Below are positions 54,146 through 54,487 of a DNA stretch of 64,000 bases, in pieces. The notes under the pieces are model-generated. The model was not told where the DNA came from, ran no database searches, and worked only from the letters and a program-made list of their open reading frames with translations. The first letter of the stretch is position 1. The number at the start of each line of letters is the position of its first letter. This DNA comes from Escherichia coli. GTDB lineage: Bacteria > Pseudomonadota > Gammaproteobacteria > Enterobacterales > Enterobacteriaceae. The stretch lies in assembly GCF_003334315.1 (NCBI RefSeq), contig NZ_QOWR01000020.1; one strand, written 5' to 3'. Position numbers and translations under genes: made by a program.

Positions 54146-54487
54146 ATGGCATACCTGGTGGCAGTAACCGCCTGCGTAAGCGGCGTGGCGCATACTTATA
54201 TGGCGGCGGAACGGCTGGAAAAGTTGTGCCTGTTAGAGAAGTGGGGAGTCAGCATTGAAACTCAGGGCGCGCTGGGAACGGAGAATCGTTTAGCGGATGA
54301 GGATATCCGCCGGGCGGATGTTGCTCTGTTGATTACGGATATCGAGCTTGCCGGTGCCGAGCGATTTGAACATTGCCGCTATGTGCAATGCAGCATCTAC
54401 GCATTCCTGCGTGAGCCGCAGCGGGTAATGAGCGCGGTGCGCAAAGTGCTTTCTGCGCCGCAGCAAACCCATCTTATTCTGGAGTAG
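54146..54487 (+). CDS. frwD: PTS fructose-like EIIB component 2
   Basis: 113 aa from MAYLVAVTACVSGVAHTYMAAERLEKLCLLEKWGVSIETQGALG... Confidence 0.93.
   Translation: MAYLVAVTACVSGVAHTYMAAERLEKLCLLEKWGVSIETQGALGTENRLADEDIRRADVALLITDIELAGAERFEHCRYVQCSIYAFLREPQRVMSAVRKVLSAPQQTHLILE

Follow-up and report, generated by a model that had tools for sequence, protein, structure and literature searches.

Organisation of the frwD-yijO junction

The window, a 64,000-nucleotide stretch of Escherichia coli chromosomal DNA (contig NZ_QOWR01000020.1) whose tested portion is 100% identical to that of strain 13C1065T, carries frwD as the last gene in the order frwC-frwB-pflD-pflC-frwD, and at its 3' end frwD runs into yijO, which is encoded on the opposite strand (Table 1). 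On the plus strand, positions 54470-54487 read CAT CTT ATT CTG GAG TAG and encode FrwD H109-L-I-L-E113 followed by the stop codon. On the minus strand the 3' end of yijO reads ...ACT ACT CCA GAA TAA, with the stop appearing as TTA at 54474-76 on the plus strand and the codons ahead of it specifying E (54477-79), P (54480-82), T (54483-85) and T (54486-88). Each stop therefore lies inside the partner coding sequence, the TAG at 54485-87 within yijO and the TAA at 54474-76 within frwD.

Table 1. Coordinates of the two genes, their junction and the conserved motifs between ptsA and frwC in the window.
Feature	Position	Strand	Description	Basis
frwD CDS	54146..54487	+	113 aa, PTS fructose-like EIIB	ORF, translation, RefSeq, NCBIfam NF007747, Pfam PTS_IIB
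yijO CDS	54474..55325	-	283 aa, AraC-family regulator, no known target	ORF, RefSeq, Pfam HTH_18 and HTH_AraC
Convergent coding overlap	54474..54487	both	14 bp; FrwD L110-E113 and stop, YijO T280-E283 and stop	read from sequence
frwD stop TAG	54485..54487	+	over yijO codons T280/T281	read from sequence
yijO stop TAA	54474..54476	-	complement of frwD codon 110 positions 2-3 and codon 111 position 1	
FrwD codons 110-111, CTT ATT ('stop trap')	54473..54478	+	NTY-ANN on plus reads TRA on minus	
Variable YijO tail codons P279-E283	54477..54491	-	past conserved ...YHSQLTEK and past HTH domain	tail alignment, Pfam
Block A, CATTTACTGGAyTTTTGTAAT	49445-49425	-	conserved	
CRP-like site, TGTGA-N6-TCGCA	49354-49339	-	conserved	
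Direct repeat, ATTTGTC/ATTTGTC	49320-49294	-	20-nt period; conserved	
-10-like hexamer, TATCCT	49266-49261	-	ahead of ptsA (ATG 49229)	

FrwD matches the NCBIfam equivalog model NF007747 with 224 bits (cut-off 153), residues 1-113 aligning to positions 2-114 of the 114 in the model, and its Pfam PTS_IIB domain spans residues 5-95 of 113. YijO has the double helix-turn-helix (HTH) of the AraC type, with Pfam HTH_18 at residues 192-270 (E = 4.5e-21) and HTH_AraC at 233-269, and its NCBIfam matches are to generic AraC-family models, none of them above an equivalog cut-off. The overlap falls outside the recognised Pfam domains of both proteins. For three strains, one of them a K-12 derivative, RefSeq/PGAP annotates the same 14-bp frwD/yijO overlap, and of 5426 complete E. 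coli genomes 5417 contain the 101-bp junction, 4812 of them with at least 99% identity.

The sequence-only reading of this DNA had placed a 14-bp convergent overlap here, with the frwD stop at 54485-54487 and yijO ending at 54474, and the sequence, the list of open reading frames (ORFs) and RefSeq all confirm it. It had also named a mis-called stop in either gene as what would remove the overlap. A mis-called stop or a frameshift error can create a false overlap, and convergent overlaps are known to be called falsely through 3'-extension errors, although mainly those longer than 60 bp (PMC2478687), whereas the frwD-yijO overlap measures only 14 bp. The reading frame dictates where a stop falls and homology supports both frames, so the overlap is genuine and neither stop is wrong. 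An artefact is extremely improbable, and this reading is refuted by the stop positions shared over many genera (see below), the presence of the same sequence in 5417 of 5426 genomes and the end-to-end fit of FrwD to the curated NF007747 model.

The overlap is also ordinary and not a statistical oddity, and it was already annotated. In one E. coli reference genome 663 adjacent gene pairs overlap, 75 of them convergently (PMC4161906), and across 338 genomes convergent pairs account for ~7% of overlaps, their origin being put down to stop loss with 3' extension (PMC2478687). Both studies ascribe convergent overlaps to movement of the stop codon and extension of the 3' end (PMC4161906, PMC2478687), and frwD-yijO shows all three of the defining features examined for a convergent overlapping pair of this 3'-extension type. 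Like the short convergent pairs described by Huvet & Stumpf 2014 (PMC4161906) and Palleja et al. 2008 (PMC2478687), it consists of real genes on opposite strands that share their 3' ends, has a short overlap conserved between species, and includes a protein, here YijO, with a non-conserved C-terminal extension that runs up to the first antisense stop. Rogozin et al. 2002, as cited in PMC2478687, is named for the same convergent class. Nothing essential separates frwD-yijO from these pairs. What it adds is breadth, with 14 bp kept over at least 12 genera, and a cause, in the form of a near-obligatory antisense stop at codons 110/111. Taken alone the overlap matters little, being standard annotation, a member of a common class and an entry in a published map of excludons.

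Elsewhere in the operon pflD and pflC have an annotated same-strand overlap of 35 bp (53266-53300), and a single base separates the pflC stop (54142-44) from the frwD ATG (54146), a spacing that suggests translational coupling.

Conservation of the overlap across Enterobacterales

From Enterobacteriaceae together with Edwardsiella and Enterobacillus we collected 80 yijO loci, each from a different species, and the ends of frwD and yijO were determined at each locus using tblastn and subsequent in-frame extension to the stop. Orthologues were recovered in 80 species, with frwD as the convergent neighbour of yijO in 51 of them and a spacer between the two genes in none of these 51. Among the 51 adjacent loci, 44 had an overlap of exactly 14 bp and came from at least 12 genera (Escherichia, Citrobacter, Pseudocitrobacter, Intestinirhabdus, Phytobacter, Kosakonia, Enterobacter, Trabulsiella, Pluralibacter, Lelliottia, Kluyvera and Buttiauxella), and the remaining seven had overlaps of 0, 4, 8, 8, 8, 11 and 29 bp. 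Across genera the positions of the stops are kept and the codons used vary between TAA, TAG and TGA in both frwD and yijO.

The two C-termini behave differently. The FrwD tail, APQxTH[L/I/F/V][I/T]L-x, is kept up to the second-last residue in all 51 adjacent loci, and it still reads ...PQATHITVS in Enterobacillus, where inserted DNA lies between frwD and yijO. Over the 80 loci YijO is kept only as far as ...SPSEYRRQYHSQLTEK (ending QLTEK), and beyond this point 0-12 residues form a tail of variable sequence and length. Leclercia and Salmonella arizonae/diarizonae lack the tail, the stop coming right after TEK, and in species without frw it differs.

Two loci with altered neighbourhoods were also examined. 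In Enterobacillus tribolii (L083) two ORFs are found between yijO and frwD (7868-9767 of that locus), one of 132 aa on the minus strand (7868-8266) and one of 191 aa on the plus strand (8861-9436), neither of which matched an NCBIfam family. The 191-aa ORF overlaps the 3' end of frwD by exactly 14 bp, and it ends at the same antisense stop that yijO uses elsewhere. In Citrobacter sp. R56 (L013) the frw operon is deleted, and 27 nt left over from the frwD 3' end continue to provide the YijO tail and stop. Among the frw-less species L013 is the only one with such a remnant 3' of yijO.

The operon itself also varies in content. In three Pseudocitrobacter loci (L026, L027 and L029), and likewise in six from Kluyvera and relatives (L057, L058, L060, L062, L063 and L071), frwC, frwB and frwD adjoin yijO without pflD/pflC, and in these pflDC-less loci the control-region motif described below lies only ~1.9 kb from the yijO stop. 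The glycyl-radical enzyme pair pflD/pflC is thus an optional insert in the PTS operon.

Probable coding constraints on the position of the two stops

We then compared the codons that underlie the shared stop positions, with the caveat that the species are related by descent and not independent, so that the counts at codons 110 and 111 are suggestive: yijO has a TAA/TGA stop at FrwD codons 110/111 in 46 of the 51 loci, the complementary TYA triplet (NTY-ANN) is present in 50 of the 51, and codon 110 has T or C at its third position in all 51 and a purine in none. Most other conserved Leu codons of frwD, unlike codon 110, are mainly CTG, although codons 27 and 102 also have a pyrimidine at the third position in ~70% of cases. 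At codon 111 the third base is T in each of the 44 loci with a 14-bp overlap, the sole invariant third position in frwD, and the other Ile codons of the gene show 48-80% conservation of this base. Where yijO ends before reaching codon 111, its third base is C in two loci out of three. This pattern suggests that the invariant T reflects a weak dual-coding constraint.

The exceptions to the 14-bp length follow from movement of one stop or the other. In the 29-bp and 11-bp variants the frwD stop is shifted and the yijO stop is in place, and in the five loci with overlaps of 0-8 bp yijO has gained an earlier stop. In the window, loss of its stop would extend YijO by 47 codons and FrwD by 54 codons before the next in-frame stop, and with these so far off purifying selection is expected on both stops.

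We consider it probable that the junction is an old, passively kept, tail-to-tail overlap of two real genes that have no spacer between them, and that it was not purpose-built. YijO would be complete in function by about residue 278 (...YHSQLTEK), shortly after its DNA-binding domain, and its reading frame would then enter the antisense strand of the frwD 3' end and terminate at the first in-frame TAA or TGA encountered there. That stop would be the complement of FrwD codons 110/111 ([L/I/F/V] then [I/T], NTY-ANN), which belong to a hydrophobic C-terminus that is presumably under selection at the level of the FrwD protein, and a small domain protein would gain ~50 residues if either stop were lost. 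An antisense stop built into a selected FrwD C-terminus, combined with the cost of losing a stop, would be expected to fix both stop positions, and hence the 14 bp, across genera. The L083 and Citrobacter R56 loci support such a passive 'stop trap', as both the unrelated 191-aa ORF and the remnant-derived YijO tail end at the frwD-encoded stop.

Some of the same data pull the other way. The overlap has stayed at 14 bp over at least 12 genera in which nearby synonymous sites are saturated, and selection could therefore act on the overlap itself. Likewise, the T of codon 111 would imply a constraint either on the last residue of YijO (E/K/Q) or on the RNA or DNA, and a view of the YijO tail as junk does not predict that this base should be invariant. 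The published listing of the pair as an excludon, considered next, also makes a selected regulatory role possible. None-the-less, the passive overlap is the account that we favour, and the present analysis adds to the existing annotation in showing that the overlap is no annotation error, in giving a concrete reason for its 14-bp length across genera, and in providing an argument against YijO as the frw regulator.

Transcription across the junction

A terminator scan of positions 53900-55700 found no terminator-like site near 54474-54487, and the junction holds no GC-rich hairpin with the A-tract/T-tract arrangement of a bidirectional intrinsic terminator. The 3' flanks on both sides fold no better than shuffled sequence (z = -0.33 and +0.15), and a hidden bidirectional terminator was rejected on the basis of these values and the empty scan. 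Using Rfam to search positions 49000-56000 (E <= 1) we also found no RNA family at the junction. One promoter-like match was detected on the minus strand at 54503-54476 and was dismissed, with 1.3 such matches expected in shuffled sequence.

As neither intergenic DNA nor a terminator separates the genes, full-length transcripts of frwD and yijO must be complementary, and it follows that the transcripts of the frw operon and of yijO are predicted to be mutually antisense at their 3' ends. Termination would then take place inside the partner gene, and would presumably be Rho-dependent or result from polymerase collision. In the ExcludonFinder study frwD-yijO is among 165 convergent excludons of E. 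coli MG1655, a call made where RNA-seq coverage overlaps in at least 50% of 58 samples (PMC12288877). The sequence-only reading had held that the overlap forces transcriptional interference or an antisense interaction. Its antisense part stands, given the overlap, the lack of spacer and terminator and the excludon listing, but forced interference goes too far, as the catalogue demonstrates transcript overlap and no regulatory effect for this pair, and no pair-specific experiment was found. In the portions of the literature available to us, no expression, opposed-expression or RNase III data specific to frwD-yijO were found.

These observations bear on whether the junction is a selected excludon, in which the absence of spacer and terminator would be maintained since convergent transcription makes frw and yijO expression mutually exclusive and switch-like, through collision of polymerases and cleavage of the RNA duplex by RNase III. 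The pair resembles excludons in being convergent, in having overlapping transcripts with no terminator between the genes, and in being itself on the published map (PMC12288877). Furthermore, no spacer occurs in any of the 51 adjacent species, 44 of which have exactly 14 bp, an intrinsic terminator is absent on either side, and excludon pairs in general are reported to show higher synteny (PMC12288877). However, the listing is based on overlapping coverage, an inevitable result of overlapping coding sequences, and coverage overlap is what is on record for frwD-yijO, whereas well-studied excludons have been shown to have opposed expression and RNase III processing. The 14-bp length can also be accounted for by constraints at the protein level, the existence of variants between 0 and 29 bp indicates that the exact length is not essential, and yijO is unchanged in at least 26 species that have no convergent frw partner, which argues that its expression is independent of the arrangement. 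On balance we regard a selected excludon as unlikely.

Relationship between YijO and the frw operon

The sequence-only reading had further proposed that the frw operon is plausibly regulated by its neighbour yijO. In the form considered here YijO would be a dedicated regulator of frwCB-pflDC-frwD, with the overlap providing antisense feedback between operon and regulator. YijO has the AraC-type HTH (HTH_18) expected of a local regulator, AraC-family regulators usually adjoin the sugar operons that they control, and yijO abuts frwD wherever frw is present, with the exception of L083 and its inserted DNA. In addition, the ptsA/frwC intergenic region contains a CRP-like site and a repeat with a 20-nt period that would be consistent with the binding site of an AraC-type activator.

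Gene content across the 80 species fits this proposal poorly. An intact yijO, encoding 273-290 aa, is kept in at least 26 of them with no frw, pfl or ptsA gene within 7 kb (L013, L019, L023, L024, L028, L030, L032, L033, L038, L046, L047, L049-L054, L065, L068, L072 and L077-L082), which is not the co-occurrence expected of a regulator and its local target. Compared with positions 46728-54487 of the window, these loci are without ptsA and frwCB-pflDC-frwD, which form two separate blocks on either side of a retained control region, and their gene order is yijO, control region, fsaB, gldA, with fsaB and gldA on the same strand after yijO and ~200 nt on. Both the frw-containing and the frw-less state occur within Citrobacter. 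Citrobacter sp. R56 (L013) retains the 3' end of frwD, the frwC leader and the 3' end of ptsA, and these remnants point to recent loss by deletion.

We also assessed whether YijO is better conserved in species that have frw, with correction for phylogenetic distance by means of the neighbouring protein Ppc (n = 67). The presence of frw was associated with a change of +1.2±1.2 points in the N-domain and +1.8±1.0 points in the C-domain, neither of which was significant, and YijO thus diverges no faster in frw-less species. Likewise, the candidate sites lie beside the start of ptsA or fsaB and are kept in frw-less genomes. A literature search on yijO, frwC, frwD, pflD, ptsA, fsaB and gldA found no regulatory link between them and no published target for YijO, which is listed among uncharacterised AraC-family factors, and how ptsA-fsaB-gldA is controlled is described as unclear. 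The proposal therefore finds no support in the literature and agrees poorly with the comparative data, and we judge it quite unlikely that YijO is dedicated to frw. A local role for YijO at the control region, including the frw promoter where frw is present, is possible.

A conserved control region linked to yijO

The control region (49288-49445, minus strand), which is the divergent intergenic region between ptsA and frwC in the window, is conserved in frw-containing and frw-less species alike, and together with fsaB-gldA it always stays linked to yijO. Its conserved elements are listed in Table 1. If TATCCT serves as a -10 element, the direct repeat would lie near -42/-62 and the CRP site near -92. 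This layout of repeat and CRP site resembles that of promoters activated by an AraC-family protein together with CRP, such as araBAD and rhaBAD.

The likeness to araBAD and rhaBAD extends to the AraC-type double HTH of YijO and to the placing of a CRP-like site and a direct repeat 5' of a -10-like hexamer. It differs in that yijO is co-directional with, or convergent to, its candidate targets and not divergent from them, and in that the site positions here are counted from a guessed -10. Given that the control region is always linked to yijO, we put it forward, as a lead, as a candidate YijO target with the appearance of an AraC-type, CRP-activated promoter. The conserved sites would indicate (ptsA-)fsaB-gldA no less strongly than frw. 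Though a by-product of the analysis of the overlap, this is its usable lead, as it offers a testable candidate target for a remaining uncharacterised E. coli transcription factor.

A more elaborate circuit can be drawn from the same elements, in which YijO and CRP act at the control region (~49288-49445) to drive ptsA-fsaB-gldA, as well as the divergent frw/pfl genes where present, and in which the junction is a selected feedback device, read-through from frw silencing its own activator by antisense in an excludon-like manner. We consider this combination very unlikely. If true it would supply a target for YijO and make a working circuit out of what is now a catalogue entry.

A further conserved block, AACAATAGGCAATC (49472-49485, minus strand), lies ~50-65 nt upstream of the frwC start and occurs only in frw-containing species and in the L013 remnant. 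This block may be a frw-specific promoter or operator element.

The region upstream of yijO

Between eptC and yijO the intergenic sequence (55396-55593) contains REP-like repeats with sub-threshold Rfam matches to naRNA4 on both strands. Its length varies among E. coli strains, with matches of 1701 versus 1712 bp and some that are split in two at 94% coverage. A hairpin of the form GGCCAC...GUGGCC followed by six U residues (55372-55400, minus strand; dG -12.6 kcal/mol) resembles a terminator for eptC, and it ends ~47 nt upstream of the yijO ATG (55325). With a putative terminator this close, a yijO promoter would have hardly any space. In a strain evolved under osmotic stress, an insertion that was annotated as IS5 in the promoter has been described at -4 of yijO (PMC3588905).
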